Shown one piece after another: positions 46,498 to 61,456 of a stretch of 64,000 nt of DNA. Position numbers and translations under genes: made by a program. Position 1 is the first letter of the stretch. Each line of letters starts with the position of its first letter. A model generated the notes under the pieces. That model saw nothing but the letters and a program-made list of their open reading frames with translations, had not been told where the DNA came from and ran no database searches. Source of the stretch: Allomuricauda sp. (GTDB taxonomy: Bacteria > Bacteroidota > Bacteroidia > Flavobacteriales > Flavobacteriaceae); assembly GCA_041391945.1 (NCBI GenBank), contig JAWKNC010000001.1, positions 189,817 through 253,816 of the forward strand. The letters are read 5' to 3'.

Positions 46498-47592
46498 CTA
46501 AAAACCATTCAAGGCGAAAAGGCGGATTTGTTCCTTCTTGCCCCGTAGTTGAAGTTTGGCAATTTCCCAGAATTCCATAGATTCAGTTTCCTTCAATTTG
46601 TCCCTCAACTGTTCGGACACCAAAATCTTGGTGCCATAATTGTTGCACTGATCTTGTATGCGTGCCGCTGTGTTGAGCACATCTCCCGTGTAGATGATCT
46701 CCTTTTTTATGACCCCTATTTCGCCCGTGGTCACCAATCCCACATGGTACCCTGCCTTGAACGACGGAAAAAAATTGAACTTTTTTTCATAACGGGCCTT
46801 TTTCTGTTCCAAGGTTTTTGAAATGCGCAGAAAGCATTCAATGCAATTGTTTTTGTACAATCCCATTTTTTCTGGCCAAGTGATCACTATCTCATCGCCA
46901 ACATACTGGTATATTTCGCCAGAAGTTTCCAAAATGGGATTGGCCATATCCGCGTAATAGTCCTTCAGCAGTTCAAAAAACTTGGCATGTCCCAGCTGTT
47001 CGGCAATGGTTGTTGAGGATTTCATGTCCAGGAACATGAAAATACGGCTTTCCCGCTTTGGGGTATGATATTTTCCAAACAAGAAGTTTAGGAATACCCC
47101 GGTTCCGACATAGATGGAGAGTTCTGCAAAGAGCATGGCAATGAGCAAGGCGAATGCAATATAAACGACCACGCTCCAAAACGTATACCTTCCCACAAAA
47201 AATTCGACACTTTGGATTACTTCCTGACTTAAGATCGGTGCATCAAACCTTCTTGAGTTCACCGCAAAGGACAACATAATCAGAAATAGGATGATAAAAC
47301 CCGTATAGAATGAAGTTTTGATTGAAATCTTTGTCCATAATCTACTCTTGGCCAGTTTTTTGCTAAGCCATGTCACCTCTATCCAACCGTGGATCAAGCC
47401 CGTGAGGAAACCGCCCACACTTGCATAGATGAGCGAACTTTTAAAATCATATTTGTTGTGGGTGGTAGGGTAATATTCCAATCTTCCCAAAATGCCCTGT
47501 TCTATAATACTGTACACTAGGCCAAAAAGGAACCAAATACAGGCGAACAACAAGGCCTGTTTGGCATAACGGATGTATTTGGGATGGAACAT
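46498..47592 (-). CDS. Membrane-anchored class III nucleotidyl cyclase
   Basis: Several TM helices, then FMFLDMKSST, YQYVGDE, GDVLNTAARIQ. Confidence 0.85.
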   Translation of the reverse strand: MFHPKYIRYAKQALLFACIWFLFGLVYSIIEQGILGRLEYYPTTHNKYDFKSSLIYASVGGFLTGLIHGWIEVTWLSKKLAKSRLWTKISIKTSFYTGFIILFLIMLSFAVNSRRFDAPILSQEVIQSVEFFVGRYTFWSVVVYIAFALLIAMLFAELSIYVGTGVFLNFLFGKYHTPKRESRIFMFLDMKSSTTIAEQLGHAKFFELLKDYYADMANPILETSGEIYQYVGDEIVITWPEKMGLYKNNCIECFLRISKTLEQKKARYEKKFNFFPSFKAGYHVGLVTTGEIGVIKKEIIYTGDVLNTAARIQDQCNNYGTKILVSEQLRDKLKETESMEFWEIAKLQLRGKKEQIRLFALNGF

Positions 47593-47732
47593 GATGATTA
47601 AAGGTAGCACATTATCAAATACGTTTGGAATTGCGGCCAATTTGGGGATATACGGTATGTCTAACGGTGAAAAATTTTAATGCCTCGCTAAAAATGAGTA
47701 CATTAAATGGTTAATTCGATAATTTCGAAACC

Positions 47733-48155
47733 ATGGGTACAGTAAAAAGTTTGAACAAATGGGCCAATGCCCATACGTACTATCCTTTAGATCTGGTACG
47801 TATTGCCTTGGGAATTTTCCTTTTCATCAAGGGCGTTGAGTTTATGACCAACCATGAACAAATGTCTGAAATGGCAAGACCTTTTCAAGATATGCCAGGG
47901 GGCATGATCGTTTTGCACTACATTGCGCCGGCACATTTTGTGGGCGGGTTTTTGATCGTTGTTGGTTTACTGACCCGATGGGCATCCTTGGCTCAAATAC
48001 CGATCCTTATTGGGGCCATCTTGACCAACTTTTTGGGACAAATGCATACCACCAATCTCATTTTGTCCGTAATTACTTTTTTGGTGTGCCTATTTTTCAT
48101 TGTGTACGGCTCTGGAAAGCATTCCGCTGATTATTACCTGAAAATGCAACAATAG
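47733..48155 (+). CDS. DoxX family membrane protein
   Basis: LVRIALGIFLFIKG, GLLTRWAS, GSGKHSAD. Confidence 0.8.
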   Translation: MGTVKSLNKWANAHTYYPLDLVRIALGIFLFIKGVEFMTNHEQMSEMARPFQDMPGGMIVLHYIAPAHFVGGFLIVVGLLTRWASLAQIPILIGAILTNFLGQMHTTNLILSVITFLVCLFFIVYGSGKHSADYYLKMQQ

Positions 48156-48160
48156 TACCA

Positions 48161-50323
48161 TTACAGGTTATCCAACTGATTGCTTTTGCCATCGGAACTG
48201 ATGGTCCAAAAGAAACCTACGAAGAAAAAACTATCGGCCGCTGGGGTTATTGCCCTACGTTCAAAAACACCATTCGTATTTGGAATGTCCGCATACTGGT
48301 AATTGCTGATATTGTTGAAGCCCAGCACATTGCTCACCGAAAAATAAAGAATCTTCTGTTGGTCGATCAAATAGGCCCAGTTTATGCTCAGACTATTGAA
48401 GGATTTGGTCTTTTCTGCCATAAAGTCCATAGTATTGGGATTGTTATAGGGCCTACCAGAACCAAAGGAATAAGATACCCCAACCTGCGAGCGGAGTTTC
48501 TCCACCCAATATTTTGTAACCACCGATAGGTTATGCTTTGACGCGAAATTGGGAGTGGCCCTTTCCGCAAAGTCCCTGTAGTCCCTTTTTGTGTCCAAAT
48601 AAGAGTAGGAAAGCCAGTAGTCTAGATGGTCGATACTCTTATTGTCCCTCCAAAAAATATCCAAGCCCGTGGCATAGCCGCTTCCCATGTTGTCAAAATT
48701 GGAATCAAATTGCGGTGAAGGTGTGTCATATTTGATGAGGTTGTCATAGTCCTTATAATAGGCCTCGGCCCTAAAGGTCTTGCCTTGGTCCAAGTACTGG
48801 TAGTTTAAAATATAGTGCGTGGTTTTTTCGGATAGCACCGAGGCATCAAATTTGACCACTTCTGCCAATGGAGTTTGGTAAAAATCGCCATAGGCCAATG
48901 AAAATTGTCCCTTTTCTCCAGGTTTATAGGCCAACGATATCCTTGGGGAAACCGTAAAATCATCCAAAAGAGAACCATACTCTCCCCTAGCCCCCAATTT
49001 CATGGCAAATCGATTGCTCAGAAAGATATCCGTCTCCACAAAACCGGCCCATAGCCGATCTTTATAATCACTGGTGAAGAAAGAACCGTCGGGTATTGAC
49101 AAAGTATCCCCATAGTCCATTAGGAAAAACTCCCCGCCGAAATTAAGATCAAACCTGCTGCTGAAATTTTTTCTGGCCTTCAATTTTATGTGTGATGCCG
49201 TTTCCTTGGCATCGATGTCATCTCCCTCCAAAGCAATGACATTGGTGTCCCAAGAGATGGAAGCCCCGGAGGTCAAGCTCCAATCATTGTCAAAATAATA
49301 TTTGTGGGATGCATTGAAATACAGATTGTTATTGGCCAATTGAAAACGGACGAAATCGTCAAAATTGATATCTTCCTGCTCAATGTCCAGATTGGCATGG
49401 TTGAAACCCGTGTACAGCTTGAACATGCTTTTATTCCCCCTGCTCCTGAAGACCGCTTCCCCTGCAATGGATTCATAAGGGCTGTTCCACTGCACGCCTT
49501 GGCTGGATGGCACCAACGCCTCATAGGGCGAAAGGTTGATGTAGGAAGCGTTCACACTAAGCGATTGATCGCCCCATATTTTGGTGTGGCCCAATCCCCC
49601 TCCCACGGACATTACCGAAATATCCGTTTTTCCCTGATCTGGCTCATCCGTGGTGTTCAACAACAATACGCTGGAGAGTGCCTGACCATATTCTGCGGAG
49701 TAGCCCCCGGTGCTAAAAGTGATGCCTTTAAAAAGGAATGGTGAGAAACGGCCCCGGGTAGGTATGTTGTTCGCGGTGGCGCTGAAAGGCTGAAAAACCC
49801 GAAGACCATCAATAAATACCTGAGTCTCCCCCGCCTCACCACCCCGCACAAAAAGCCTGCCATCCTCTGATACCGTAGTGGTTCCTGGCAAGGTCTGCAA
49901 AGCTCCCACAAAGTCCCCGACCGCACCGGCGGTGGTCACAATATCCAGAGGTTTTAGCACGGATACCTTGGAATTGTCGCCCGCCTCAAAGGTCCCGGCA
50001 GTCAACGTGACCCCGGTCAACGCATTGATGGACTCGGCCAATTTGATTTTCAACTCCTTAAAAAAGCTCACATCGCCAACCTCATAATGCGTATCATAGG
50101 ACAGCATGGAAATAACCAAGGTCTGGGTACCGGTTTCCGTTGTTTCAAAACCAAAATGGCCTGACTCATCGGTGGAGGCCCCATCATAGGTGCCTTCCAA
50201 ATACACATTGGCCCCCACAATGGGATTGTTCTTCGCATCCGTCACAATTCCAGAAATCGATGTCTGTGCAAAGAGAAGGTGAAAATGACAAAGAAGACAT
50301 AGCAAAAAAATGTGGTTTTTCAT
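48161..50323 (-). CDS. TonB-dependent receptor with N-terminal carboxypeptidase-regulatory-like domain
   Basis: Signal peptide; ISGIVTD...GANV; plug DGRLFVRGGEAGETQVFIDG and GGYSAEYGQALSSV; barrel ending FFVGFFW. Confidence 0.9.
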   Translation of the reverse strand: MKNHIFLLCLLCHFHLLFAQTSISGIVTDAKNNPIVGANVYLEGTYDGASTDESGHFGFETTETGTQTLVISMLSYDTHYEVGDVSFFKELKIKLAESINALTGVTLTAGTFEAGDNSKVSVLKPLDIVTTAGAVGDFVGALQTLPGTTTVSEDGRLFVRGGEAGETQVFIDGLRVFQPFSATANNIPTRGRFSPFLFKGITFSTGGYSAEYGQALSSVLLLNTTDEPDQGKTDISVMSVGGGLGHTKIWGDQSLSVNASYINLSPYEALVPSSQGVQWNSPYESIAGEAVFRSRGNKSMFKLYTGFNHANLDIEQEDINFDDFVRFQLANNNLYFNASHKYYFDNDWSLTSGASISWDTNVIALEGDDIDAKETASHIKLKARKNFSSRFDLNFGGEFFLMDYGDTLSIPDGSFFTSDYKDRLWAGFVETDIFLSNRFAMKLGARGEYGSLLDDFTVSPRISLAYKPGEKGQFSLAYGDFYQTPLAEVVKFDASVLSEKTTHYILNYQYLDQGKTFRAEAYYKDYDNLIKYDTPSPQFDSNFDNMGSGYATGLDIFWRDNKSIDHLDYWLSYSYLDTKRDYRDFAERATPNFASKHNLSVVTKYWVEKLRSQVGVSYSFGSGRPYNNPNTMDFMAEKTKSFNSLSINWAYLIDQQKILYFSVSNVLGFNNISNYQYADIPNTNGVFERRAITPAADSFFFVGFFWTISSDGKSNQLDNL

Positions 50324-50384
50324 GACTGTTCGTTGATTGATGACCCAAAATTGCCCCAATATGCAGTCCTAGACCAAAAGGAAA

Positions 50385-50492: not shown

Positions 50493-53400
50493 ATCAAACG
50501 GTCTGTTTACATAATATTTATTGTATGCTTTGCCATGGACTTCCTTCAAGGGCAGACCAATCCGATAGACAGTTTGCAAAAGAGGTACCACGAGGTAGAT
50601 TCGGACTCCTTGCGCATCCGTATCTTGAAGGATATTGCGTGGGAATACCTCAATAATCGTGGCAATGCGGAACTGGCAAAGAAGCATATCGATAGTTTTT
50701 ACACTATCAGCAAAGAAGCCAATATCCCTTGGGGAATCACCATGGCCAACTACCAATATGCGGTACTGGACAGGCAGAAGGGAAACTATAGCAAAGCCCT
50801 TGCCCATATTGACGGATACCTCGATTCCCCAATCACCCAAAAAGAGCCTTTTGCCATAGCCAACGGACTGTACCAAAAGGCCTTGATCCTTGACAATTAT
50901 GGCAGTTTAGAGGAAAGCTTGAAAATCTATTACGATATCCTCAAGATCTACGAAAAGCAAAAAGATTCCTTTAGCTATGCCTTTACATTGAATGCCATGG
51001 GCGAAATCCAAAAAAAGACTGGAAAAATGTCCGAAGCCATGGAAAGCTACGAGCATGCTCTGGGTATTTTTAGAGATTTGGGCGACAAAACGGAAATTGC
51101 CAATTGCCTTTTCAACATAGGGGACACCTATCTACAACAAAAACAATACGATAAGGCACTGGAGTACTTGAACAAATCCTTGGCCTTGGATGAAGAGACC
51201 AACAGCGAATGGGGAAAAGCTTTTGATTATGAGGCTCTGGGGAAGGTATATGGTCATCAAAAAAAATATGCCCAATCTTTGGAATACCACAAAAAGGCGT
51301 TGGAACTCAGGGAAAAGTTGGGGCAAAGGTTGGAACTCTCCATGAGCCATACCCAGATTGGCATCATAAATCTAAAAATGAAAGATTTCGCCAATGCCGA
51401 GGAAAGTATTCTTAAGGCCATAGAAGTTTCCAAGGATATTGGCGCAAAACCCCAACTCCAGGAAAATTATGAAATCCTCTCCCAGATATACGAACAAACT
51501 GGGGAATACGAAAAAGCACTGACCTTCAAAAATAAATTTGTCACACTGAAGGACAGTCTGTTCACCGAGGCCAAATCCAGGCAAATTGAAGAACTTCAGG
51601 TGCGGTTTGACACGGAAAAAAAACAGGATGCCATTGCTGCACTTCAAAAAGATGCCGAAATAAACGACCTAAAGCTCCGTCAGCAAAAAACACTCCGTAA
51701 TGTGGTCATCGGTATTGCCCTTGCAGGTTTGGTGTTCCTTTGGTTCGCCTTTAACCGATACAAACAGGCTCAACGTGCCAAGCAGGCCGAAGAGGAGAAG
51801 AAAAGAGCCATTTTGGAGGAACGGAAACGCACCGAAATTGAGAAACAACGGGTAAGCGAGCTTCAAAAAATAGACAAACTCAAGGATGAGTTCCTGGCCA
51901 ATACCTCCCACGAGCTTCGAACTCCTCTGGTGGGGATCATCGGTCTTACGGAGTCCCTGAAAGATGGTGTGGCCGGCAAACTGCCAAAGGCAGCTTTGGA
52001 AAACCTGGATATGATCGCCAATAGCGGCAAAAGGCTCTCACATTTGGTGAACGATATCCTCGACTTTTCAAAATTGAAGAACAAAGATTTGGAATTATCG
52101 CCAAAGCCAGTGGATGTCCATGCTATTTCCAGTATCGTTCTACGCCTGTCCAACCCATTGGTAAAGGATAAAAAATTAAAACTGATCAATTCCATTCCCA
52201 AAGAGGTGCCCTTGGTTGAGGCCGATGAAAACAGACTCCAACAAATATTGTACAATTTGGTGGGCAATGCCATCAAGTTTACGCACAAGGGGTACATTAC
52301 CCTGTCCTCGGAAATACAGGAAAATAGGCTTGCCATATCGATTGCCGATACCGGAATAGGAATCCAAGATGATAAATTGGATATCATCTTCAATTCCTTT
52401 GAGCAGGCGGATGGATCCACACAAAGGGAATATGGCGGTACGGGACTTGGGCTTTCGGTGACCAAACAACTGGTAGAACTCCATGGTGGTACTATAAGTG
52501 CCTCTTCCGAAAAAGGCAAGGGTTCCATTTTCACCTTTACACTTCCGCTAAGCACCAAAAAGAGAAAGGACCTTAAAAAGGAGGACTACACCCCGGAGGA
52601 TTTCGTCCAAAACATAGTCGCTCATGATGAAGATTTATCCATATCCGGAAAAAGGCCCAAATCTTCAGAGGAAGCCGCCAAAATACTTATTGTTGATGAC
52701 GAGCCCGTCAACAGACGGGTCTTGGAAAACCATTTGACCGTTGCCGGATACGACATAACCGAGGTAAGCACGGGAAAAGGAGCCTTAAAGTTGCTTGAGG
52801 AAGATGCATCCTTCAACTTGGTTCTGCTGGATATCATGATGCCCGAAATTTCCGGTTATGAGGTCTGTGAAAAAATCCGAGAAAAATACCCGGCCAGCGA
52901 CCTGCCCATCATTTTACTCACGGCAAAGAACACGGTCAGTGATCTTGTGACCGGTTTCAACTCGGGGGCCAACGATTATTTGACCAAGCCCTTCTCCAAG
53001 AATGAACTTTTGAGCCGGATCAAGACCCACCTCAACCTCAACACCATCCATAGGGCCACTTCACGATTTGTGCCAGCAGAATTTGTGCGTTCCGTGGGCA
53101 AGGAATCCATCACGGATATTCGGCTGGGAGATCACATTGAGAAAAGTGTAACCGTTCTGTTCTCCGATATTCGGGACTACACAACCCTTTCCGAAAGCAT
53201 GACGCCCACCCAGAACTTTAAGTTCGTCAATGCGTACGTGGGTCGTATGGGACCCATCATCAAGGACAACGATGGTTTTGTAAACCAGTATATGGGAGAC
53301 GGAATCATGGCCCTATTCCCCAAAAAACCTGAAAATGCCTTGGATGCCGCCATAGAAATGCAACGGACCTTGGCCCTTTATAATAAAAGAAGAGTCGAGG

Positions 53401-53918
53401 AAAAAGGCTATAAACCGCTATCTGTTGGGATTGGGCTCCACACAGGGCCATTGATCATGGGCATCATTGGCGATTCCAAAAGAAATGATCCCGCGGTGAT
53501 TGCCGATACCGTAAACAGTGCCGCCAGGGTGGAGGGCGTCACCAAATATTTTGGGGCCAACATCATCATCAGTGAGGACAGTCTAAAATTAATGGAGGAT
53601 CCCTCAGGTTTCAATATTAGATATTTGGGAAAAGTGCGGGTAAAGGGCAAACAAAAAGCCATCGAAATTTATGAATGTATCGATGGCGACAGTGTGGAAA
53701 GCATCTCCTTAAAACTGGAGACCAAAAAACATTATGACGAGGGCATAGACCTCTTTTTCAACAGTCAGTTCAACGAGGCTTCCACAGCGTTTGAGTGGGT
53801 CCTCTACAAAAATCCAGGGGATTCCGTAGCCAAATACTTCAATGAAAAAGCCAAGAAATATGCGGTATTGGGTATTCCCGAGGATTGGGCATCAGGAACC
53901 GTACTGTACGAAAAATAG
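50493..53918 (+). CDS. Hybrid sensor: periplasmic TPRs - TM - HisKA/HATPase - REC - class III cyclase
   Basis: TPR repeats; TM VVIGIALAGLVFLWFAF; NTSHELRTP; NLVGNAIKF, DTGIG, GTGLGL; REC VDDE/LLDIMMP; cyclase LFSDIR, GDG, NSAARVE. In-frame ATC at 50493 restores a signal peptide (first ATG is 50535). Confidence 0.9.
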   Translation: MKRSVYIIFIVCFAMDFLQGQTNPIDSLQKRYHEVDSDSLRIRILKDIAWEYLNNRGNAELAKKHIDSFYTISKEANIPWGITMANYQYAVLDRQKGNYSKALAHIDGYLDSPITQKEPFAIANGLYQKALILDNYGSLEESLKIYYDILKIYEKQKDSFSYAFTLNAMGEIQKKTGKMSEAMESYEHALGIFRDLGDKTEIANCLFNIGDTYLQQKQYDKALEYLNKSLALDEETNSEWGKAFDYEALGKVYGHQKKYAQSLEYHKKALELREKLGQRLELSMSHTQIGIINLKMKDFANAEESILKAIEVSKDIGAKPQLQENYEILSQIYEQTGEYEKALTFKNKFVTLKDSLFTEAKSRQIEELQVRFDTEKKQDAIAALQKDAEINDLKLRQQKTLRNVVIGIALAGLVFLWFAFNRYKQAQRAKQAEEEKKRAILEERKRTEIEKQRVSELQKIDKLKDEFLANTSHELRTPLVGIIGLTESLKDGVAGKLPKAALENLDMIANSGKRLSHLVNDILDFSKLKNKDLELSPKPVDVHAISSIVLRLSNPLVKDKKLKLINSIPKEVPLVEADENRLQQILYNLVGNAIKFTHKGYITLSSEIQENRLAISIADTGIGIQDDKLDIIFNSFEQADGSTQREYGGTGLGLSVTKQLVELHGGTISASSEKGKGSIFTFTLPLSTKKRKDLKKEDYTPEDFVQNIVAHDEDLSISGKRPKSSEEAAKILIVDDEPVNRRVLENHLTVAGYDITEVSTGKGALKLLEEDASFNLVLLDIMMPEISGYEVCEKIREKYPASDLPIILLTAKNTVSDLVTGFNSGANDYLTKPFSKNELLSRIKTHLNLNTIHRATSRFVPAEFVRSVGKESITDIRLGDHIEKSVTVLFSDIRDYTTLSESMTPTQNFKFVNAYVGRMGPIIKDNDGFVNQYMGDGIMALFPKKPENALDAAIEMQRTLALYNKRRVEEKGYKPLSVGIGLHTGPLIMGIIGDSKRNDPAVIADTVNSAARVEGVTKYFGANIIISEDSLKLMEDPSGFNIRYLGKVRVKGKQKAIEIYECIDGDSVESISLKLETKKHYDEGIDLFFNSQFNEASTAFEWVLYKNPGDSVAKYFNEKAKKYAVLGIPEDWASGTVLYEK

Positions 53919-54038
53919 GTTCATTTATAGCTTCTGTCCATTGTGCTTGGAACTCCTGTAGGAGTTTTGGGAACTCGGGGCAAACTGAAACATTCATGCG
54001 TTTTGTAGTTTACCCCAAGCTTACCACTCATCCCAATT

Positions 54039-55175
54039 TTATCTCCTGACGAACGATAGTCGGGATTTAATATGTTTAAAGGAAATCGACCGTATCCATA
54101 TCCTTGCCGGTTGTTCAAAATACCTGAAGGACAGCCATGCACTAACGCCATTGCAAAGTAGCATGAAAAGCAATGATAGCAACAATATGATAGTGCCAGG
54201 ATTTTCGCCAGGGTGTGCCGATACCCAATATTGCATCCCGATCCAATAGCCAAATAACCAAAGCGCTTGGAACATATAAAGCGAGAAGGAAATATCCCCA
54301 AAAAAACGTGCGGTACGGTGTGAGGCCAACCGATGAAGTACCCCTTTGTTGTGAGCCAAACTCAATATGACTGCCGCAAAAAATCCGACGGTAATGATAT
54401 CTTGCACCCCATAATGCATGCAGACCACGATCATGGTTAGGAATCCTACTCCAACGATGTCCTTTTCAAAGAAACCGCGGCCAATTTCCGACCTAAACGC
54501 TTGGTAGACCAATATGCCCATGGAGAACTCGGAGATACATCTAAAAAGACCAAACTCCCACGTAGTGTTCAGATTTCCTTCTTCATGCCATCCCGGAATA
54601 AGGAACAACAGTCCAATACCTACAATTGTCAACACCGAAAGGGTTAATTTCCTTTTCTTGAACAGCCATACGAAAACGGGGATCATAATCAGGTAGGTCC
54701 ACCATTCCGCTCCTATGGACCATGCCGGCATGTTCCAGCTCAATCCACTTGGATCTCCAAAGGTTTCCCCAAAAATCAGGTGTCTCCAAAATCCTTCCCA
54801 GGGATAAACAAATGCAAAATCCGATGCGGTCTTGGGCGCCAATGCGAGCAGAGACCCAAAAAAGATGAGATGAATAAAAAGCTGTAACAAATGCAATGGA
54901 TACAGCCTTGCAAACCTGGCCTTGATAAATGAGGCTATGGTCTCGAAACTGGGCGTCTTGAACTTATCGCCATACACATGTGTAATCACGAAGCCGCTCA
55001 AAATAAAAAAGAAATCGACCCACAGATATCCTTTGCCCAATAGCATACTAGCATCCCTCGATATTAGAGTGGGCAATCCCGTAAATGAAGTGACCTCATC
55101 GAAATGAAAGATGACCACCCAAATGGCTGCCAGTCCCCGTAAGGGAGTCAATGTTCCTATATATTTTTTCATCAT
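54039..55175 (-). CDS. Acyltransferase family 3 (OafA-like) membrane protein
   Basis: LRGLAAIWVVIFH, VDFFFILSGFVI, RFARLYPLH, WSIGAEW, GDISFSLYMFQ, RYFEQP. Confidence 0.9.
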   Translation of the reverse strand: MMKKYIGTLTPLRGLAAIWVVIFHFDEVTSFTGLPTLISRDASMLLGKGYLWVDFFFILSGFVITHVYGDKFKTPSFETIASFIKARFARLYPLHLLQLFIHLIFFGSLLALAPKTASDFAFVYPWEGFWRHLIFGETFGDPSGLSWNMPAWSIGAEWWTYLIMIPVFVWLFKKRKLTLSVLTIVGIGLLFLIPGWHEEGNLNTTWEFGLFRCISEFSMGILVYQAFRSEIGRGFFEKDIVGVGFLTMIVVCMHYGVQDIITVGFFAAVILSLAHNKGVLHRLASHRTARFFGDISFSLYMFQALWLFGYWIGMQYWVSAHPGENPGTIILLLSLLFMLLCNGVSAWLSFRYFEQPARIWIRSISFKHIKSRLSFVRR

Positions 55176-55232
55176 AAATAATTTTAAAGTTTAACTTATC
55201 CCTGCCTCTCCTTGGAAAGGCTATTTTGGAGG

Positions 55233-58200
55233 TTATGCCATAACCGATTCCTCTTGATTTTTGTTCGACATGGCGTGATAACCAACATATCTATTCTGTA
55301 CCTTTTTTTGAATCTCCGTGACCCAATATTGGTCCATAGTTTGCTCTTCTTCAAGCATTTTTTGAAATCTCCCTTCCATTTTCAAATAGGCCAACAACGG
55401 TATTTTTGGGGCTTTGGAATCCAGCTGTAAAGGCAATCGGCCCTCTTCAATCATTTTTGGGTCGTGCCTGTACAATAACCACTGCCCCGACGCAACCGCC
55501 GCTTTATGGTATTGCGATGGGTTTTTCATATCGATGCCATGCGAAGGGCTATGGCAATAAGCAATGATAATGGATGGCCCTTGGTGTTTTTCGGCTTCAA
55601 CAAATGCATTGAGTGTCTGTTGTTGATCGGCACCAATGGCCACCGAAGCCACATAAACATCCTCGTAATTCATGGCCAATAAACCCAAGTCCTTCTTTTG
55701 TTTCTTTTTGCCCCTAGCTGCAAATCGGGCCGAGGCGCCATAAGGGGTAGCCTTGGACATTTGCCCTCCCGTGTTGGAATACGCTTCATTGTCCAAAACC
55801 AAAATATTGACGTTCTCGCCAGATGCAAGGACATGATCTAGGCCGCCATATCCAATATCGTAGGCCCAACCATCGCCCCCAACAATCCAAACACTCTTTT
55901 TTACCAAGCTCTCCACTAGGTTGAGCAGTTTTTTGGCATCGTCGGATTCTATTTTTTGCAGCTGGATTTTAAGTGTCTCTATTCGATTTCTTTGTTGATC
56001 AATTTCCAAGTCACTGGATTGTGGCGCATTCAGAATCGCCTCGACCAAATCACTGTCGAGATATTGGGCCATCTTTGCAAGCAAATCTTTGGCTTGATTT
56101 TCCTTTTGGTTTAGGGACAACCGAAATCCAAGACCAAATTCCGCATTGTCCTCGAAAAGTGAGTTGGACCATGCCGGCCCCCTACCCTGTTCATTTTTGG
56201 ACCATGGCGTAGTGGGCAGTGCACCACCAAAAATGGAACTGGCACCAGTAGCATTGGCCACCAACATGCGATCTCCGAAAAGTTGGGACAACAATTTTAA
56301 ATAAGTGGCCTGTCCACAACCATCCTCCCCCATGGGATATTTGAACAAAGGCTCCTGCAATTGTTGCTGACCGACTTTATTTGTATCCAATTTGGTCCTA
56401 TCGAACTCTGGTATAGTTTCAAAATACATCCAGTTTTCCCTTTCTTTTTCGATTCTGGATAGGCTCTTGTTCATCATCAAGGCCTTCGCTGGACAGGCAT
56501 CCACACAATTGTTGCAGGACGTACATTGATCTGGGTTAACTTGAATGGTATAGTTCAACAAGTCGAATCCTTCCATTTCTTCCATAAATTCCATGGATTT
56601 GAAACTGGATGGTGCACCATTTTTGATTGTGTTTTCAAAAGCCTTTATACGCAATGCACCAGACGGACAGGCCATGCTGCAGGCCCCACATTGGGTACAC
56701 AGATCGGTATTCCACTCGGGAAGTTCCACAACCATTTTCCTTGTATTGTGTGTTGAAGTACCTGTGGCAAAGGTTCCATCCACTGGCAATAGGCTCACTG
56801 GAAGTTCATTCCCTTTTCCGGCCAAAAGGCTTCCCAAAAGGGTTTTGGAAAATACTTCATCTTGGGAAAGTATACTTTCATTTTCCAAAATTGAAGTATC
56901 CACTTTTCTGATGAGCTGCCCCAAAGTTTCAAGAGCTGAATTCTGGTTCGCCCCACTTTTCAAAGCAAAATACGATGCGTGCAATCCTGAAACAGCATAT
57001 CCGTTCATCATATAACTGCTGGATAAGACTTCACTGGGAGCAACATATACATCAAGACTTTTCTCCTGAATTAGTTTCTGGGTTCTGCATGGAAGTGTTC
57101 CCCAAAAACGGTCTGGTCCTGAGTCGGATAGTACCAAGAGGGTTCCTGAATTTTGAACGTTCTCCAAAACCGAATCCTGCTCCACAAAAGCCACATCATC
57201 ACAGGCCACAAAATTGGCATGCTGTATCAAATAAGGAGCCTTTATGGGTTCGGGAGCCATACGCAAATGGGAAACATTCCTGGAATTGGATTTTCTATAA
57301 TCGCATTCCATATAGCCCTGCACAAAATTTTCGGTAGTTTCTCCCAATAGCTTTAAAATGACATTGAATTGTTCCTGTGTTTTATCGGTTTTGGTTTGAT
57401 AGAAAAGGGCCTGTTCAAATTTCGATGGCAAGTTGAATCCATCGACCGGAAGGCTCAAGTGGGTAACATCATCCAAAATACCCACAGTGAAATTGTTTTT
57501 GGGTTCCTTGCGTTTTAGGTTGTCCACAAGAGTTTTGACCATGGCAGGGGTAAATTCCTTGGAACTCAACCCATAGCGTCCCCCAACTATTTTTGGGAAT
57601 GAGTCAAATCTATTGCATTGTGCAACGGACTGGACCACATCCAAATACAAGGGCTCACTCGTGGAACCAGGTTCTTTGGTTCGGTCCAATACGGCAATGG
57701 CGCTGCAAGATTTGGGCAAGCTGTTGATGAAATGATCAACACTGAAAGGTCTGAACAATCTAACCTTGACCAAACCTATTTTTTCGCCCTGTACATTCAA
57801 ATGGGCGATGGTTTCCTCCAAGGTCTCCGTAGCAGAGGCCATGGCAACGATCACCTGCTCAGCCTCTGGATGTCCTATATATTCAAAAATCTTGTGCTGT
57901 CTGCCCGTGAGCTCGGCAAATTCATCCATTTTATGCTGAACGATGGTTGGACAAGCATCATAATAGCAGTTGACGGCCTCCCTGCTTTGAAAGAATACGT
58001 CCGGTCCTTGGGAAGTTCCCCTGATAACTGGGTTGTTTGGGTCAAGAGCCCTATTTCGATGGGAGTTGACCATATCTTCATCGATCATACTGCGTATGGC
58101 ATGATCTGTAATTTTTTCAATTTTTGATACTTCATGGGAGGTTCTGAACCCATCAAAGAAGTGTACAAAAGGTATTCTTGATGCCAACGAAGCGGCTTGT

Positions 58201-58670
58201 GATATCAAGGCGAAATCCATAGCTTCCTGCACGGAACCTGAAGCCAAAAGGGCATATCCAGTATTTCGTACGGCCATAACATCGCTATGGTCCCCAAACA
58301 CCGAAAGCGCATGCGTTGCCACCGATCTTGTGGCCACATGGATTACGTTAGGGGTAAGCTCCCCTGCTATTTTATACATATTGGGCATCATCAATAACAA
58401 CCCTTGTGATGCGGTAAAGGTGGTTGACAATGAACCGGTCTGCAATGCGCCGTGCATGGCTCCCGCCACCCCGGCTTCACTTTGCATTTCAAAAGTTGCG
58501 GGGACATTGCCAAAAATATTTTTATGCTGGTATGCACTCCATTCCTCAACCAACTCGGCCATTTCAGAAGCCGGAGTAATGGGGTAAATGGGAAAAACAT
58601 CATTGATGCGGTAGGCTACATGTGCTACGGCCTGATTTCCATTTACGATTATGTGTTTTTGGTTTTTCAT
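55233..58670 (-). CDS. nifJ: Pyruvate:ferredoxin/flavodoxin oxidoreductase homologue with degenerate proximal Fe-S and CoA-binding sites
   Basis: YPITP, MQSEAG, TASQGLLLM, FFDGFRTSHE, two CxxCxxCxxxCP motifs, GDGWAYDIG, YSNTGGQ. Start set to ATG 58670. Confidence 0.9.
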   Translation of the reverse strand: MKNQKHIIVNGNQAVAHVAYRINDVFPIYPITPASEMAELVEEWSAYQHKNIFGNVPATFEMQSEAGVAGAMHGALQTGSLSTTFTASQGLLLMMPNMYKIAGELTPNVIHVATRSVATHALSVFGDHSDVMAVRNTGYALLASGSVQEAMDFALISQAASLASRIPFVHFFDGFRTSHEVSKIEKITDHAIRSMIDEDMVNSHRNRALDPNNPVIRGTSQGPDVFFQSREAVNCYYDACPTIVQHKMDEFAELTGRQHKIFEYIGHPEAEQVIVAMASATETLEETIAHLNVQGEKIGLVKVRLFRPFSVDHFINSLPKSCSAIAVLDRTKEPGSTSEPLYLDVVQSVAQCNRFDSFPKIVGGRYGLSSKEFTPAMVKTLVDNLKRKEPKNNFTVGILDDVTHLSLPVDGFNLPSKFEQALFYQTKTDKTQEQFNVILKLLGETTENFVQGYMECDYRKSNSRNVSHLRMAPEPIKAPYLIQHANFVACDDVAFVEQDSVLENVQNSGTLLVLSDSGPDRFWGTLPCRTQKLIQEKSLDVYVAPSEVLSSSYMMNGYAVSGLHASYFALKSGANQNSALETLGQLIRKVDTSILENESILSQDEVFSKTLLGSLLAGKGNELPVSLLPVDGTFATGTSTHNTRKMVVELPEWNTDLCTQCGACSMACPSGALRIKAFENTIKNGAPSSFKSMEFMEEMEGFDLLNYTIQVNPDQCTSCNNCVDACPAKALMMNKSLSRIEKERENWMYFETIPEFDRTKLDTNKVGQQQLQEPLFKYPMGEDGCGQATYLKLLSQLFGDRMLVANATGASSIFGGALPTTPWSKNEQGRGPAWSNSLFEDNAEFGLGFRLSLNQKENQAKDLLAKMAQYLDSDLVEAILNAPQSSDLEIDQQRNRIETLKIQLQKIESDDAKKLLNLVESLVKKSVWIVGGDGWAYDIGYGGLDHVLASGENVNILVLDNEAYSNTGGQMSKATPYGASARFAARGKKKQKKDLGLLAMNYEDVYVASVAIGADQQQTLNAFVEAEKHQGPSIIIAYCHSPSHGIDMKNPSQYHKAAVASGQWLLYRHDPKMIEEGRLPLQLDSKAPKIPLLAYLKMEGRFQKMLEEEQTMDQYWVTEIQKKVQNRYVGYHAMSNKNQEESVMA

Positions 58671-58708
58671 GAGGGTGGATTGTGACTTTGGTAAGGTGGA
58701 TTCAAATG

Positions 58709-58741
58709 AATAAGCCACTCCAAAAATGGGAGTGGCTTATT
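58709..58741. terminator. 13-bp perfect hairpin between the OsmC-like and PFOR-like genes (terminator or mRNA stabiliser)
   Basis: aataagccactcc-aaaaatg-ggagtggcttatt; weak U-tract on the sense (minus) strand. Confidence 0.6.
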
Positions 58742-58750
58742 TCATGCCTA

Positions 58751-59302
58751 TTACTTTTCGAACTCGATGGTAACAGGAGTTGGGTTGGTCAACATATCGA
58801 ATACGGGGGAGAATTGGGCCAAAGCTCTCAATTGCTCTTCAGAAGCGTCAGTCTTTACCTTGAATTTTACAGTAATACCGTTGTATCCTTTTCTAACTTC
58901 AGGGTCAAGACCCAAGAATCCGTGAAGGTCAACATCACCGGTCAAAGAGGACTCAGCACCTTCAATTTCAATTCCGTTGGCAGCGGCATGGTAAGCCATG
59001 GCACCGGTCAAACAAGAACCAAGGGCGTGCAAAACAATCTCTGCAGGGTTGGGTGCCTGGTCTTTTCCCAAAAGAACCTCAACGTGGTCAGCTTCCATGG
59101 TAAAGGAATCTTTTCTTGTTGGGTGCTCTTGTCCTACACCGTAATAATCTTGGATGCTGGTCACACAGTGACCTCCTTCGATCCAATTGTTTTTGGCCCT
59201 GAACTCGAATTTTGCCAATTCAGGATTTCCTTGTACTGCGTTGATAGTATCTACCAACTGATCTACGTTTACTCCGTTTTTAATGTTTGCTGTTGTAATC
59301 AT
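58751..59302 (-). CDS. OsmC/Ohr family protein
   Basis: NGVNVDQL, LLGKDQAPNPAEIVLHALGSCLT, GDVDLHGFLGL, SPVFDMLTNPTPV. Confidence 0.88.
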   Translation of the reverse strand: MITTANIKNGVNVDQLVDTINAVQGNPELAKFEFRAKNNWIEGGHCVTSIQDYYGVGQEHPTRKDSFTMEADHVEVLLGKDQAPNPAEIVLHALGSCLTGAMAYHAAANGIEIEGAESSLTGDVDLHGFLGLDPEVRKGYNGITVKFKVKTDASEEQLRALAQFSPVFDMLTNPTPVTIEFEK

Positions 59303-59348
59303 TGTTTTTAGATTTTAAGATTAATTGATTAACATTTGCCTCAATAGA

Positions 59349-59364
59349 TGCATTTGCCGTGCCA
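59349..59364 (-). promoter_or_regulatory. Sigma54 (-24/-12) promoter for the OsmC-like/PFOR-like genes
   Basis: Minus strand TGGCACGGCAAATGCA: GG-N10-GC in TGGCAC context, 46 nt upstream of the ATG. Confidence 0.85.
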
Positions 59365-59383
59365 AAAAATGTAATCATCTTAA

Positions 59384-59396
59384 AATCAATATTTTA
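59384..59396 (+). promoter_or_regulatory. IHF-like site between enhancer and sigma54 promoter
   Basis: AATCAA-TATT-TTA matches WATCAR-N4-TTR. Confidence 0.5.
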
Positions 59397-59424
59397 CAAC
59401 GATATTTTGTATCATGTTAGGTAG

Positions 59425-59482
59425 CGAAATTTCATTAATCAACGAAATTTCGTGAATTTATTTATGAGATTTCGTGAATTTA
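59425..59482. promoter_or_regulatory. Putative upstream activator sequences for the sigma54 activator
   Basis: Palindrome ACGAAATTTCGT (59442-59453), partial copy CGAAATTTC (59425-59433), direct repeat ATTTCGTGAATTTA at 59447 and 59469. Confidence 0.7.
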
Positions 59483-61330
59483 TAGAGGCCGGGCTATGCC
59501 CAATGCCTTTATTCTGGAGGTAAGTGTGGTCGGGGGGATTCCCAAAAGTGCGGCAGCACCTTTTTCCCCAGAAATTTTCCAACGGGTCTTTTTCAGGGCC
59601 TTCAAGATATTATCCTTTTCCAACCCAAGGAGTTCTTGGGACGTGTAGATATGATCTTCTTCAATTTGGGTGACCGTCTGCTTGCTTCCGCTTACATCGG
59701 GGATGATGTTGGACCAATCAATTTCCCCATCTTTTGAAACGATGATGGCACGCTCCACCAAATTTTGAAGCTCCCTTACGTTGCCAGGCCAATCGTACTG
59801 CAAAAAAAGTTTCTTTTGCTCCGCTGTGAAAGGATTTATTTTCCGATTCAGTTTTTTGGAAAAATGCCGTACCATGTTTTCTGCAATCAGGCTTACGTCG
59901 TTGCCCCTATCCCGCAGGGCAGGGATCTCTATCGGAAAAACGTTCAACCTATAATAAAGGTCTTCCCTAAATTTTCCATCCTTGGAAAATTGCAGCAAAT
60001 CCCGGTGCGAGGCTGCTATAATGCGGACATCCACCTTTTGTGTGGTGGAGCTTCCCACGGGATCAAATTCCCCTTCTTGGATTACCCTCAGTAATTTGGG
60101 TTGAAGATCCAACGGAAGCTCCCCAATCTCATCCAAAAAGATGGTACCCTTGTCCGCCAGGGAAAACCGGCCTTTTCTACTTGCGGTGGCACCGGTAAAA
60201 GCGCCTTTTTCATGCCCGAAGAGTTCACTCTCAATCAAATTGGCAGGAATGGCCCCACAATTGATACGGATCAACGGTCCATGGGCCCGGTTACTAGCTG
60301 CATGGATGGCCCTGGCCACCAGTTCCTTTCCCGTTCCCGTTTCGCCATGGATCAGTACCGTGGCTTCGGTGTGAGCCACCTGTTTGATCAAATCCAGAAC
60401 TTTTTTGATAGCTCTGTGCTGGCCTATGATGCCGTGATCATTGGTAAGTTCCTTTATCTCCTCCTGCAAATATTGAGTCTGACTTTGCAGGGAAGTTATC
60501 TCGTTTTCTGCTTTTAGGCGATCATCGATGTTACGCAATATTAAGGTATAAAATGTGTCCGTTTCATTTCCATACCTACTGATGGTGCCTTCATTGAGCG
60601 TCTCTTTTTCATCAGACCCAATAACCTTGATGACTTGCGGCAAATAGGTGTTCATAACTTCCCGTTTGCCCTTTTGGCTTGATGCTATCAGAGATTCCAA
60701 CAGCTCTGCACTGGCATCGTCCAAAAAATAAAGCAGGTTCCGTTGAATCACATCATCATTCTGGAACAGAGCCTGCGCCGAGGCATTGGCCAAGACTATC
60801 CTAAAATCGGTATCGAACATGATTATGGCATCCATGGCCCCATCAATGAGCCCGGTCATTTTGGAATTGGCCAGTTCTACCTCTTTTTTAGAAGCCGATA
60901 ATCTTTCCTGAATGATATCCAGTTCCCGGTGCCTTTTGATCAATACCGACAAAACTCCCATGACAAAACCTTTATCCGAGCCGATCAGATTGGAAAAATG
61001 GGATGATTTTATCTTTAAAAGCGTGGTGTCCTCTTCCGCGGTAACCGATACAGATCTCGGTTTTTGGTCCAATAGAGCATATTCCCCGAAACATTCCCCT
61101 TTGGACAATGAACCATAACGATGTTCCTTATCATGCACCTTTACCTTACCTTCAAGTATGACGTACATGCCATCCCCAACATCTCCCTTCTCAATAATAC
61201 GGTGGGTTTTACCAAAATGCTCCTCTTCCGAATTTCTGCAAAGTTCCAAAAGCGAAACTTTTTCCACCTCGGAAAAGAAAGGAACTTCTTTTAGGAAATC
61301 TACCAATTCACGAAGTCGGGTTGAGGTCAT
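59480..61330 (-). CDS. Sigma54-dependent activator (bEBP): cNMP-binding - PAS - AAA+ - HTH
   Basis: FGEYALLDQKPRSVSV phosphate-binding cassette; PAS GAMDAIIMFD; GETGTGKE, ESELFGHEKGAFTGA, FLDEIGE, DLYYRLN, WPGNVRELQN; GAAALLGIPPTTL. Confidence 0.92.
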   Translation of the reverse strand: MTSTRLRELVDFLKEVPFFSEVEKVSLLELCRNSEEEHFGKTHRIIEKGDVGDGMYVILEGKVKVHDKEHRYGSLSKGECFGEYALLDQKPRSVSVTAEEDTTLLKIKSSHFSNLIGSDKGFVMGVLSVLIKRHRELDIIQERLSASKKEVELANSKMTGLIDGAMDAIIMFDTDFRIVLANASAQALFQNDDVIQRNLLYFLDDASAELLESLIASSQKGKREVMNTYLPQVIKVIGSDEKETLNEGTISRYGNETDTFYTLILRNIDDRLKAENEITSLQSQTQYLQEEIKELTNDHGIIGQHRAIKKVLDLIKQVAHTEATVLIHGETGTGKELVARAIHAASNRAHGPLIRINCGAIPANLIESELFGHEKGAFTGATASRKGRFSLADKGTIFLDEIGELPLDLQPKLLRVIQEGEFDPVGSSTTQKVDVRIIAASHRDLLQFSKDGKFREDLYYRLNVFPIEIPALRDRGNDVSLIAENMVRHFSKKLNRKINPFTAEQKKLFLQYDWPGNVRELQNLVERAIIVSKDGEIDWSNIIPDVSGSKQTVTQIEEDHIYTSQELLGLEKDNILKALKKTRWKISGEKGAAALLGIPPTTLTSRIKALGIARPL

Positions 61331-61456
61331 GGTCCAGTCTCGATGTTGCTGTATGAAATAAATATAAAGATTTATGGGGATTACGGATATCAATTGCTCT
61401 TTTCAATAAATTAAATCGATGGTTTTTTCTATTTTTATTCTTCAAACCTATAGCAA

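Follow-up and report, generated by a model that had tools for sequence, protein, structure and literature searches.

The window, the whole 64,000-nt stretch of DNA analysed here, comes from a marine flavobacterium (Allomuricauda sp.) and carries a module made up of a sensor-cyclase, an activator that combines a cNMP-binding (CNB) domain with a sigma-54 output, and a redox-enzyme operon. The features are as follows, in positions of the window.

46498-47640, minus strand: second membrane class III cyclase, with a Gln/Ile specificity pair.
50493..53918, plus strand: type A sensor-cyclase (signal peptide, periplasmic TPR, one TM helix, HisKA, HATPase, receiver, class III cyclase).
53142..53660, plus strand: catalytic domain of the sensor cyclase, with metal-binding Asp (FSDI, GDG) and transition-state Asn/Arg (NSAAR) intact and a Gln/Ala pair.
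54039-55175, minus strand: Acyl_transf_3 (Acyltransferase_3) membrane protein (Pfam), 57 bp downstream of the PFOR-like gene.
55233-58670, minus strand: PFOR-like gene (TIGR02176, 1403 bits; start ATG 58670), second conserved gene of the operon.
58709..58741, minus strand: perfect 13-bp stem-loop between the OsmC-like and PFOR-like genes, read from the sequence.
58751-59302, minus strand: OsmC-like gene (Pfam), first gene of the predicted regulated operon.
59350..59364, minus strand: sigma-54 -24/-12 promoter, TGGCACGGCAAATGC (TGGCAC-N5-ATGC), 62 nt upstream of the OsmC ATG.
59424..59475, minus strand: three enhancer (UAS) sites, ACGA-N4-TCGT, placed at -111, -89 and -71 relative to the promoter (59464-59475; 59442-59453, which is a perfect palindrome; 59424-59435).
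59480..61333, minus strand: enhancer-binding protein of 616 aa (cNMP, PAS, AAA+ and HTH by Pfam, called on 59480-61393).
60977-61222, minus strand: Pfam core of the activator cNMP-binding domain (residues 1-118), which is followed by a long helix (residues 120-164).
60533-60832, minus strand: activator PAS domain (residues 168-267).
59699-60436, minus strand: activator AAA+ domain with GAFTGA (residues 300-545), followed by the HTH (residues 564-610).

Every domain that the earlier note had assigned to the sensor and the activator was recovered with Pfam. The sensor matches TPR repeats, HisKA, HATPase_c, Response_reg and Guanylate_cyc (PF00211, E 5.8e-20), and its single TM helix lies at about residue 390. 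The phospho-acceptor His and Asp are present (H-box HELRTPL and receiver LLDIMMP), and the receiver sits directly N-terminal to the cyclase domain with HisKA and HATPase upstream, the layout of CyaC-type enzymes. The codon at 50493, which the earlier note gave as the start, is ATC and opens a signal peptide that is kept in relatives; the first ATG (50535, ORF 50535-53918) falls inside this signal peptide. ATC AAA is kept in six congeners at the place where ATG AAA is found in other genera, and ATC at 50493 is probably the start of the gene. Signal peptides of the orthologs support a periplasmic input to the sensor, as had been proposed.

The cyclase of CyaC, a kinase-receiver-cyclase enzyme, is activated when the proximal receiver is phosphorylated (PMC3009899). 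Like the sensor, CyaC (Spirulina, Anabaena) and ACR (Dictyostelium) have a class III cyclase domain that is immediately preceded by a histidine kinase and a receiver. They differ in their input, which consists of GAF domains or 7TM rather than a signal peptide and periplasmic TPR; the sensor also has a Gln/Ala pair and its gene is tied physically and phyletically to one receptor gene. The sensor might instead be chiefly an ordinary hybrid kinase that feeds a separate response regulator, with a cyclase domain that is accessory or inactive; hybrid kinases normally serve phosphorelays, and these genomes commonly encode TPR-kinase proteins that lack a cyclase domain. However, Pfam finds no HPt domain in the sensor, the receiver abuts the cyclase domain just as in CyaC, the class III catalytic residues (FSDI, GDG, NSAAR) are all conserved in every ortholog, and a cyclase-only protein (type B, below) takes the place of the sensor in other genera. 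We consider an ordinary hybrid kinase very improbable and favour a true sensor-cyclase, in which the periplasmic TPR domain would control the histidine kinase, and the kinase would phosphorylate the receiver before the cyclase domain and so set cyclase output, as in CyaC-type enzymes.

The activator has a strong match to cNMP_binding (PF00027, 70 bits against a cutoff of 27.5) and to Sigma54_activat (PF00158, E 1.2e-73), together with PAS, AAA_lid and HTH_8. Walker A (GETGTGKE) and Walker B (FLDEIGE) are readable, as is the sigma-54 contact loop EKGAFTGATA, whose GAFTGA is invariant in 51 homologs. The phosphate-binding cassette (PBC), in which Gly-Glu serves the ribose and Arg-Ser/Thr-Ala the phosphate, reads FGEYAL...PRSVS in the activator of the window, and most homologs have RSAS; its residues G82, E83, R92 and S93 are invariant in the same 51 homologs, which come from A-type and B-type loci alike. 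In the AF2 model (pLDDT 78) the CNB domain is a beta-barrel with a PBC helix, and its top sequence matches in the PDB are the CNB domains of PKG and PKA, those of PKG being the best. A PDB fold search with the full model returned matches to the AAA+ part only and none for the CNB-PAS module. The protein does not belong to the CRP/FNR family, since it is not a CNB domain plus winged helix of about 200-250 aa, and its output consists of PAS, AAA+ and HTH_8; its likeness to CRP would be limited to the reading of a cyclic nucleotide. The nearest relative found outside the family is a GAF-PAS-AAA+ protein (L001).

Upstream of the OsmC-like gene, a TGGCAY element lies 59-73 nt ahead of the ATG in 20/20 loci. 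The enhancer geometry was judged on these 20 aligned loci, and the UAS positions agree in all of them save that one site of L089 is displaced by 1 nt. A genome-wide scan for a sigma-54 site with at least two UAS found this combination solely at the OsmC promoter; a second sigma-54 site with one UAS-like match (G000:C2:615518) was dropped, as the surrounding sequence does not look intergenic. The genome has rpoN (at G000:C4). The conserved enhancers, the -24/-12 promoter and rpoN thus support the predicted sigma-54 control of the OsmC-like and PFOR-like genes, two of the three targets named in the earlier note. The third, the acyltransferase, is absent from 20/20 family-level loci and, among the congeners checked, is confined to G630 and G604. 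It is an insertion of this lineage rather than a conserved member of the regulon, but is possibly co-transcribed with the operon in this strain.

The OsmC-like gene is the most constant target and is kept in all loci that reach that far. Its product has one conserved Cys (GSCLT), with FSPV where the second Cys would be. The PFOR-like protein keeps two ferredoxin-type clusters but is without two Cys of the proximal [4Fe-4S] site (alignment to 6cin), and the identical losses are seen in the PFOR-like orthologs examined. A single redox-enzyme operon appears to be turned on by the cNMP-sigma-54 activator.

The earlier note had named co-occurrence and synteny as a check on the circuit, and both proved strong at the genus and the family level. 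Activator and sensor are jointly present or absent in 39 of 41 species of the genus (both, n = 15; activator only, n = 1; sensor only, n = 1; neither, n = 24), a figure that cannot be separated from physical linkage, since the whole block may be gained or lost as a single piece. The two genes thus share 15 of the 16 carriers. The sensor-only species is an incomplete assembly with a contig that starts inside the OsmC gene. G599, which has lost the sensor, has an intact activator and two other cyclases elsewhere in the genome. Where both genes are on one contig (14 congeners and the window) they are always adjacent and convergent, in line with the arrangement first noted in the window; in G198 the sensor is retained on another contig.

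The cNMP-PAS-AAA+-HTH activators form a narrow family that is confined to Flavobacteriaceae (23 genera sampled); among 1.84 billion representatives it accounts for a single full-length cluster at 50% identity. A scan of contigs with the activator alignment yielded unrelated sigma-54 activators only (L001-L080), because it was captured by the generic Walker A pattern; L001 and L004 were kept as outgroup architectures, and activator orthologs were found by a separate genome search. Phylum-wide candidates of 545-660 aa proved to be cNMP-histidine kinases, not activators. The cassette of activator, three UAS, -24/-12 promoter and OsmC-like gene is kept in 23 genera, with the PFOR-like gene next in 22 of them. 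An ortholog of the sensor-cyclase was found in 12 of 201 genera, all 12 within the 22 activator-carrying genera.

Genera without the type A sensor have another cyclase type flanking the cassette in its place, and at least one class III cyclase gene flanks it in 22 of 23 genera; the chance of a cyclase near the activator is about 2% for one, per genome. Type A (signal peptide-TPR-kinase-receiver-cyclase) is convergent in the window, and type B is cyclase-TM-TPR. The two are complementary (both, 1; A only, 9; B only, 12; neither, 1; Fisher p = 1.1e-4), and the activator tree requires at least three switches between them. In this genome the activator alone among 10 CNB-domain proteins has a canonical PBC. 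The same holds in G063 (12 CNB-domain proteins) and G038 (seven), and in both of these genomes the cyclase adjacent to the activator is the only one.

These data bear on the question of whether the CNB domain reads a cyclic nucleotide at all. Many CRP/FNR-family domains bind none, and CNB domains that do not bind nucleotide are the norm in this genome, because nine of its 10 CNB-domain proteins are without a canonical cassette. The activator could accordingly be an orphan, or bind some other ligand, with cyclases nearby merely through inheritance of the block and control exerted via PAS or protein partners; the joint presence or absence of the entire block within the genus and the activator without sensor in G599 would fit such an arrangement. 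It does not explain why Gly-Glu and Arg-Ser of the PBC are invariant in 51 homologs, nor why the sole cyclase of G063 and of G038 adjoins the activator. Moreover, block inheritance does not predict that two unrelated cyclase architectures at different positions should replace each other. An orphan CNB domain is distinctly improbable on this evidence.

We favour a circuit in which the sensor makes a cyclic nucleotide that is read by the CNB-fused sigma-54 activator, which in turn controls the OsmC-like/PFOR-like operon, with cAMP as the most likely messenger. This reading, which we regard as likely, upholds the overall circuit of the earlier note, in which two details failed: the acyltransferase as a target, and the second cyclase. 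The latter is indeed nearby but is missing at the same position in five congeners with collinear flanks, and was rejected as a part of the circuit; it is an insertion unique to the lineage of this genome. The word 'local' may overstate how private the wire is, because the genome has four cyclase domains (two of them within 14 kb of the activator) and one canonical receptor; nucleotide from the other three cyclases may be read by the activator as well.

The identity of the nucleotide is less clear. Adenylyl cyclases have the canonical specificity pairs Lys/Asp or Lys/Thr, and guanylyl cyclases Glu/Cys, Glu/Ser or Glu/Gly. All locus-linked cyclases have Gln at the Lys/Glu position, paired with Ala in type A and with Asp in type B; neither pair is canonical, and the sequence therefore does not fix the product. 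The closest solved homolog of the sensor cyclase domain is PDB 2w01, which we take to be the Synechocystis guanylyl cyclase Cya2; its residues aligned with the specificity pair are Glu and Gly. Taken with the Gln at every locus and the PKG domains that best match the CNB domain, this leaves some room for a messenger other than cAMP, namely cGMP or, with lower probability, a different cyclic mononucleotide; the wire would then be insulated from other signalling. Against this, type B retains the Asp typical of adenylyl cyclases, a Gln-containing pair reportedly occurs in Rv0386, a mycobacterial class III adenylyl cyclase with guanylyl cyclase side activity, and the Arg-Ser-Ala cassette is also found in the cAMP binders CAP and MloK1. 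A messenger other than cAMP is possible but on balance unlikely. It is more doubtful still that the module is a private wire of one cyclase, one receptor and one promoter, run on a non-cAMP nucleotide (cGMP or other) that Gln-type cyclases specify, in which interchangeable periplasmic TPR sensors (a globin/2Fe-2S cyclase in some genera) report envelope or redox state to the sigma-54 promoter of a re-engineered pair, PFOR-like and one-Cys OsmC-like.

With cAMP as the most likely ligand, the cyclic mononucleotide would bind the canonical PBC in the CNB domain at the N-terminus. The C-helix of this domain, which runs on as a 45-residue helix into PAS, would then move and so change the assembly or the ATPase of the AAA+ ring. 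With its HTH on the three ACGA-N4-TCGT sites, the activator would remodel sigma-54 RNA polymerase at the -24/-12 promoter, so that the OsmC-like and PFOR-like genes, and in this strain probably the inserted acyltransferase too, would be transcribed. The PAS domain might itself be the principal input, or add a second one. The sign might also be reversed, with the nucleotide-bound CNB domain keeping the AAA+ ring inactive and the sensor turning the operon off: sequence alone leaves the sign unfixed, and the N-terminal domains of many enhancer-binding proteins are intramolecular repressors. Yet in XylR, DmpR and NorR the ligand relieves repression, so that ligand means ON in the known cases, and most CNB proteins are activated by nucleotide. 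Inhibition by the nucleotide is, in our view, unlikely, and activation remains the preferred sign.

The activator resembles several known regulators in part. CAP (cAMP-CRP), Vfr, GlxR and cGMP-CgrA likewise use a CNB domain with Gly-Glu...Arg-Ser-Ala to make the product of a cyclase a transcriptional decision. Whereas CRP-type factors consist of CNB and winged helix and act on sigma-70 polymerase, which they recruit to many promoters, the activator is a CNB-PAS-AAA+ sigma-54 protein with a Fis-type HTH and apparently one promoter. NorR, NifA and FhlA (GAF), XylR/DmpR (V4R) and TyrR (ACT-PAS) share the N-terminal small-molecule sensor, the GAFTGA motor and the upstream palindromes; here, in contrast, the sensor module is a CNB domain, which no solved activator has, the PDB fold matches covering the AAA+ part alone. 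In FleQ and VpsR, too, a nucleotide second messenger controls a sigma-54-type activator, and the AAA+ domain of FleQ is among the best fold matches; however, c-di-GMP binds the AAA+ domain of FleQ itself (5exx), whereas the present activator would bind its cyclic mononucleotide through a separate CNB domain. A CNB domain also lies ahead of a signalling output in cNMP-histidine kinases, cNMP-HD-GYP, cNMP-SpoIIE, Bd1971 (cNMP-EAL) and MloK1/SthK. The nearest CNB sequence relatives outside the activator family are indeed fusions to other signalling outputs, none of them a sigma-54 activator. We know of no described enhancer-binding protein that senses through a CNB domain, and no paper on a CNB-type sigma-54 activator was found in the literature searched.

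As far as we know, hardly any work has been done on cyclic mononucleotide signalling in Bacteroidota. The module would join two well-known systems of regulation, sigma-54 activators and class III cyclases with their CNB receptors, in an arrangement that lends itself unusually well to experiment; some genomes contain just a single cyclase, a single canonical receptor and a single target promoter, with all three inside 10 kb. For engineering, it would supply a compact sigma-54 switch that is gated by a nucleotide and has tight OFF-state logic, and the function of the conserved but atypical pair of PFOR-like and OsmC-like enzymes could be approached through its regulation. Within the operon, the stem-loop between these two genes may act as an attenuator or stabiliser.

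The region encodes all of the genes and domains that the earlier note had described; these were confirmed by Pfam searches, and the activator sequence shows the motifs FGEYAL...PRSVS and GAFTGA.

46498-47640: second cyclase, membrane-anchored
50535-53918 (+): sensor with TPR repeats, HisKA, HATPase_c, receiver and class III cyclase domain (Pfam)
54039-55175 (-): Acyltransferase_3 protein (Pfam)
55233-58670 (-): PFOR-like protein (TIGR02176, 1403 bits)
58751-59302 (-): OsmC-like protein (Pfam)
59480-61333 (-): activator, 616 aa, with cNMP_binding (CNB), PAS, Sigma54_activat, AAA lid and HTH_8 (Pfam)

The 3.5 Mb genome from which the window comes (G000) contains rpoN, five sigma-54 activators, ten cNMP_binding domains and four cyclase domains, two of them inside the window. 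Besides the sensor, its class III cyclases are encoded at 46498-47640 of the window and, on contigs C6 and C4 of G000, at 92875-94248 and 182845-183342 respectively. At the Lys/Glu position for substrate specificity, all four carry Gln.

The earlier note proposed a local circuit in which the sensor-cyclase feeds the cNMP-gated activator, and co-occurrence and synteny across genera agree with this: all genera with the sensor lie within those with the activator, and 22 of 23 activator loci have a flanking cyclase. The activator is carried by 22 of 201 Flavobacteriaceae genera; one more (G472) was found later in a search of 400 genomes. The order activator, OsmC-like gene, PFOR-like gene (the cassette) is kept in the 23 loci except one, where a second OsmC and a methyltransferase stand in place of PFOR. 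Full-length orthologs of the sensor (type A, > 50% identity) occur in 12 of the 201 genera, all among the 22. In 10 genera including that of the window, type A is convergent after the PFOR-like gene, directly adjoining it in all except the window (one of the 10 placements was established by joining two contig ends). Genera that lack type A beside the cassette have a different cyclase, type B, there. Type B (∼ 680 aa) consists of an N-terminal cyclase domain, one TM helix, a FlgO-like region and TPR repeats. It is usually divergent and within ∼ 150 bp of the activator start, sometimes duplicated, and in two genera it is convergent after PFOR. The cassette is flanked by A only in 9 genera, by B only in 12, by both in 1 and by neither in 1 (G198, whose type A is on another contig). 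A Fisher test finds this complementarity significant (p = 1.1e-4), and at least three switches between A and B are needed on the activator tree. By chance, any cyclase would be expected within 12 kb of the cassette in ∼ 2% of genomes. In two genomes (G063, G038) the cyclase beside the activator is the sole cyclase of the genome, and in three (G008, G032, G119) both cyclases of the genome are located in the cassette locus. Extra cyclases near the cassette are a 2Fe-2S ferredoxin/cyclase/globin fusion in G008 (locus L090:6709-8046), a MASE6-cyclase in G181 (locus L081:9278-10756) and a 443-aa cyclase in G119. The type B-like cyclase of G000 sits on another contig, away from the activator. Genomes from six genera without the activator (G092, G065, G143, G142, G035, G054) encode a 565-585-aa protein whose cyclase domain is 45-47% identical to that of the sensor; 1-2 kb away is a kinase gene whose open frame spans ∼ 1,490 aa (909 aa in G142). 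The pair resembles the sensor split in two, and would feed some other receptor.

Within the genus, 16 of 41 species have the activator, 16 the sensor and 15 both. A single contig carries both genes in 14 congeners and in the window, and in each of these they are neighbours in convergent orientation. In one congener (G599) the sensor is cleanly missing between PFOR and the next gene, and two other cyclases are found elsewhere. In another (G604, a 75%-complete assembly) the contig begins within the OsmC gene, so the activator is probably just beyond its end. Cyclase counts in three complete congeners that lack the cassette are 0, 0 and 1. The block thus behaves as a unit within the genus, in a pattern that is not independent of physical linkage.

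The same comparisons delimit the block. The nearby second cyclase was discarded as a part of the circuit: it is an insertion, and the genes on either side of it are direct neighbours in five congeners. Of the three proposed target genes, the OsmC-like and PFOR-like genes are conserved together with the promoter, and the acyltransferase is not: none of the 20 family-level loci has it, nor do most congeners. In the window strain it is on the PFOR strand, 57 bp downstream, and might share a transcript with PFOR. Synteny between a TonB-dependent receptor gene (48161-50359) and the sensor of type A extends to three other genera (loci L081, L091, L097), and a 140-aa gene beside the receptor (47733-48155) is kept there as well in two of the three.

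Immediately past the activator stop codon are three ACGA-N4-TCGT sites (59464-59475, 59442-59453 and 59424-59435), the central one a perfect palindrome. They are followed by an A/T-rich spacer and then by TGGCACGGCAAATGC at 59350-59364, 62 nt upstream of the OsmC ATG. We aligned 20 loci, one per different genus, whose proteins are only ∼ 60-65% identical. A TGGCAY element is found 59-73 nt upstream of the ATG in all 20; the three sites begin at -111, -89 and -71 from this element throughout, the one deviation being a site in locus L089 that is shifted by 1 nt, and the central site is perfectly palindromic in 19. In our reading of the alignment, an IHF-like WATCAANNNNTTR lies between enhancer and promoter in most loci and is weakly matched in the window. 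G000 contains 180 matches to the sigma-54 consensus (≤ 1 mismatch), and at least two upstream enhancer sites are found at the OsmC promoter only; the activator thus appears, from this pattern of sites, to be dedicated to a single promoter. The sole other candidate combining sigma-54 and enhancer matches was rejected, as the surrounding sequence does not look intergenic. In the whole of G000, ACGA-N4-TCGT occurs 8 times versus ∼ 52 expected from base composition.

Among the ten cNMP_binding proteins of G000, the Gly-Glu...Arg-Ser cassette is present in the activator alone; the remaining nine are short, CRP/FNR-like and without the Arg. The activator is likewise the sole protein with a canonical cassette in G063 (12 cNMP_binding proteins) and G038 (7). 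These counts point to the activator as the one obvious canonical receptor for the cyclases; receptors of other folds are possible. Four residues of its phosphate-binding cassette, G82, E83, R92 and S93, are invariant across 51 homologs. In an AlphaFold model (pLDDT 78), the CNB barrel spans residues 1-118 and is followed by an uninterrupted helix (120-164) that runs into PAS (168-267); beyond PAS come a second helix, the AAA+ domain and HTH. Matches to the model in a PDB fold search were limited to the AAA+ part.

A word-indexed search returned hundreds of ∼ 616-aa proteins with identical domains, all from Flavobacteriaceae, among them Flagellimonas/Muricauda, Zobellia, Maribacter and Psychroserpens. 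When the N-terminal 300 residues were run in a full HMMER scan against 1.84 billion 50%-identity representatives, one full-length cluster and fragments came back. The next CNB relatives outside this cluster have a histidine kinase, an HD-GYP-type domain or a SpoIIE phosphatase as fusion partner, and the nearest activator from outside the family is a GAF-PAS-AAA+ protein. The phylum-wide sample of 400 genomes yielded a single additional ortholog, again in Flavobacteriaceae; its other long matches are cNMP-histidine kinases and were set aside. Proteins of ∼ 550-650 aa with CNB followed by a histidine kinase occur in other families of the phylum (loci L101-L104, L106, L109), and the representative search also found this fusion in ∼ 400-aa proteins.

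Sensor orthologs from other genera begin with Met-Lys; their signal peptide has Gly-Gln at its end and is followed by the TPR domain and one TM helix. This arrangement places the TPR domain in the periplasm, as the earlier note had supposed for the input side, and the kinase, receiver and cyclase are predicted to be cytoplasmic. Conservation of the signal peptide extends to the window and five congeners, but there its first codon is ATC: ATC AAA heads it in all six (window 50493-50555; loci L115-L118, L120), against ATG AAA in other genera. No alternative start codon common to the six sequences was found, and translation probably starts at ATC (Ile) 50493. Pfam detected no HPt domain in the sensor. 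The receiver abuts the cyclase domain, as it does in CyaC, which is activated by phosphorylation (PMC3009899). The catalytic Asp, Asn and Arg are intact in the cyclases; type A has Gln/Ala as its substrate-specifying pair, and type B has Gln/Asp. The solved structure nearest to the sensor cyclase domain is 2w01, the Synechocystis guanylyl cyclase Cya2, with Glu/Gly at these positions. A Gln-Asn pair is reportedly present in a mycobacterial class III adenylyl cyclase (Rv0386) with guanylyl cyclase side activity. The most likely product would be cAMP.

The module would combine three known kinds of component: a CyaC-like two-component cyclase, a CRP-like CNB receptor domain and a ligand-gated enhancer-binding protein. 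Our literature search found no description of such a combined arrangement. It would resemble FleQ and VpsR, in which a nucleotide messenger controls a sigma-54-type activator; there, however, c-di-GMP binds the AAA+ domain, whereas here a separate CNB domain would bind a cyclic mononucleotide. Which ligand is bound, in which direction it acts and what the PAS domain does are inferred from sequence.

The PFOR-like protein (55233-58670; orthologs in loci L081-L100, L107, L108) aligns with solved PFORs end to end. In the orthologs examined, Glu/Asp-Gly-Cys replaces the Cys-x-Gly-Cys of solved PFORs and ANATG-Ala/Ser their ANATG-Cys. Two of the Cys that hold the proximal [4Fe-4S] cluster are thereby missing, and both ferredoxin-type clusters are retained. 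In the OsmC-like protein only one of the peroxidase Cys pair remains (GSCLT), and FSPV replaces CPV in all orthologs; GGHC is also conserved in all genera checked. A redox or stress role for the pair is plausible. A stem-loop (58709-58741, -; perfect 13-bp stem, 7-nt loop) lies in the gap from the OsmC-like stop codon to the PFOR-like start codon and could set the ratio of the two products.
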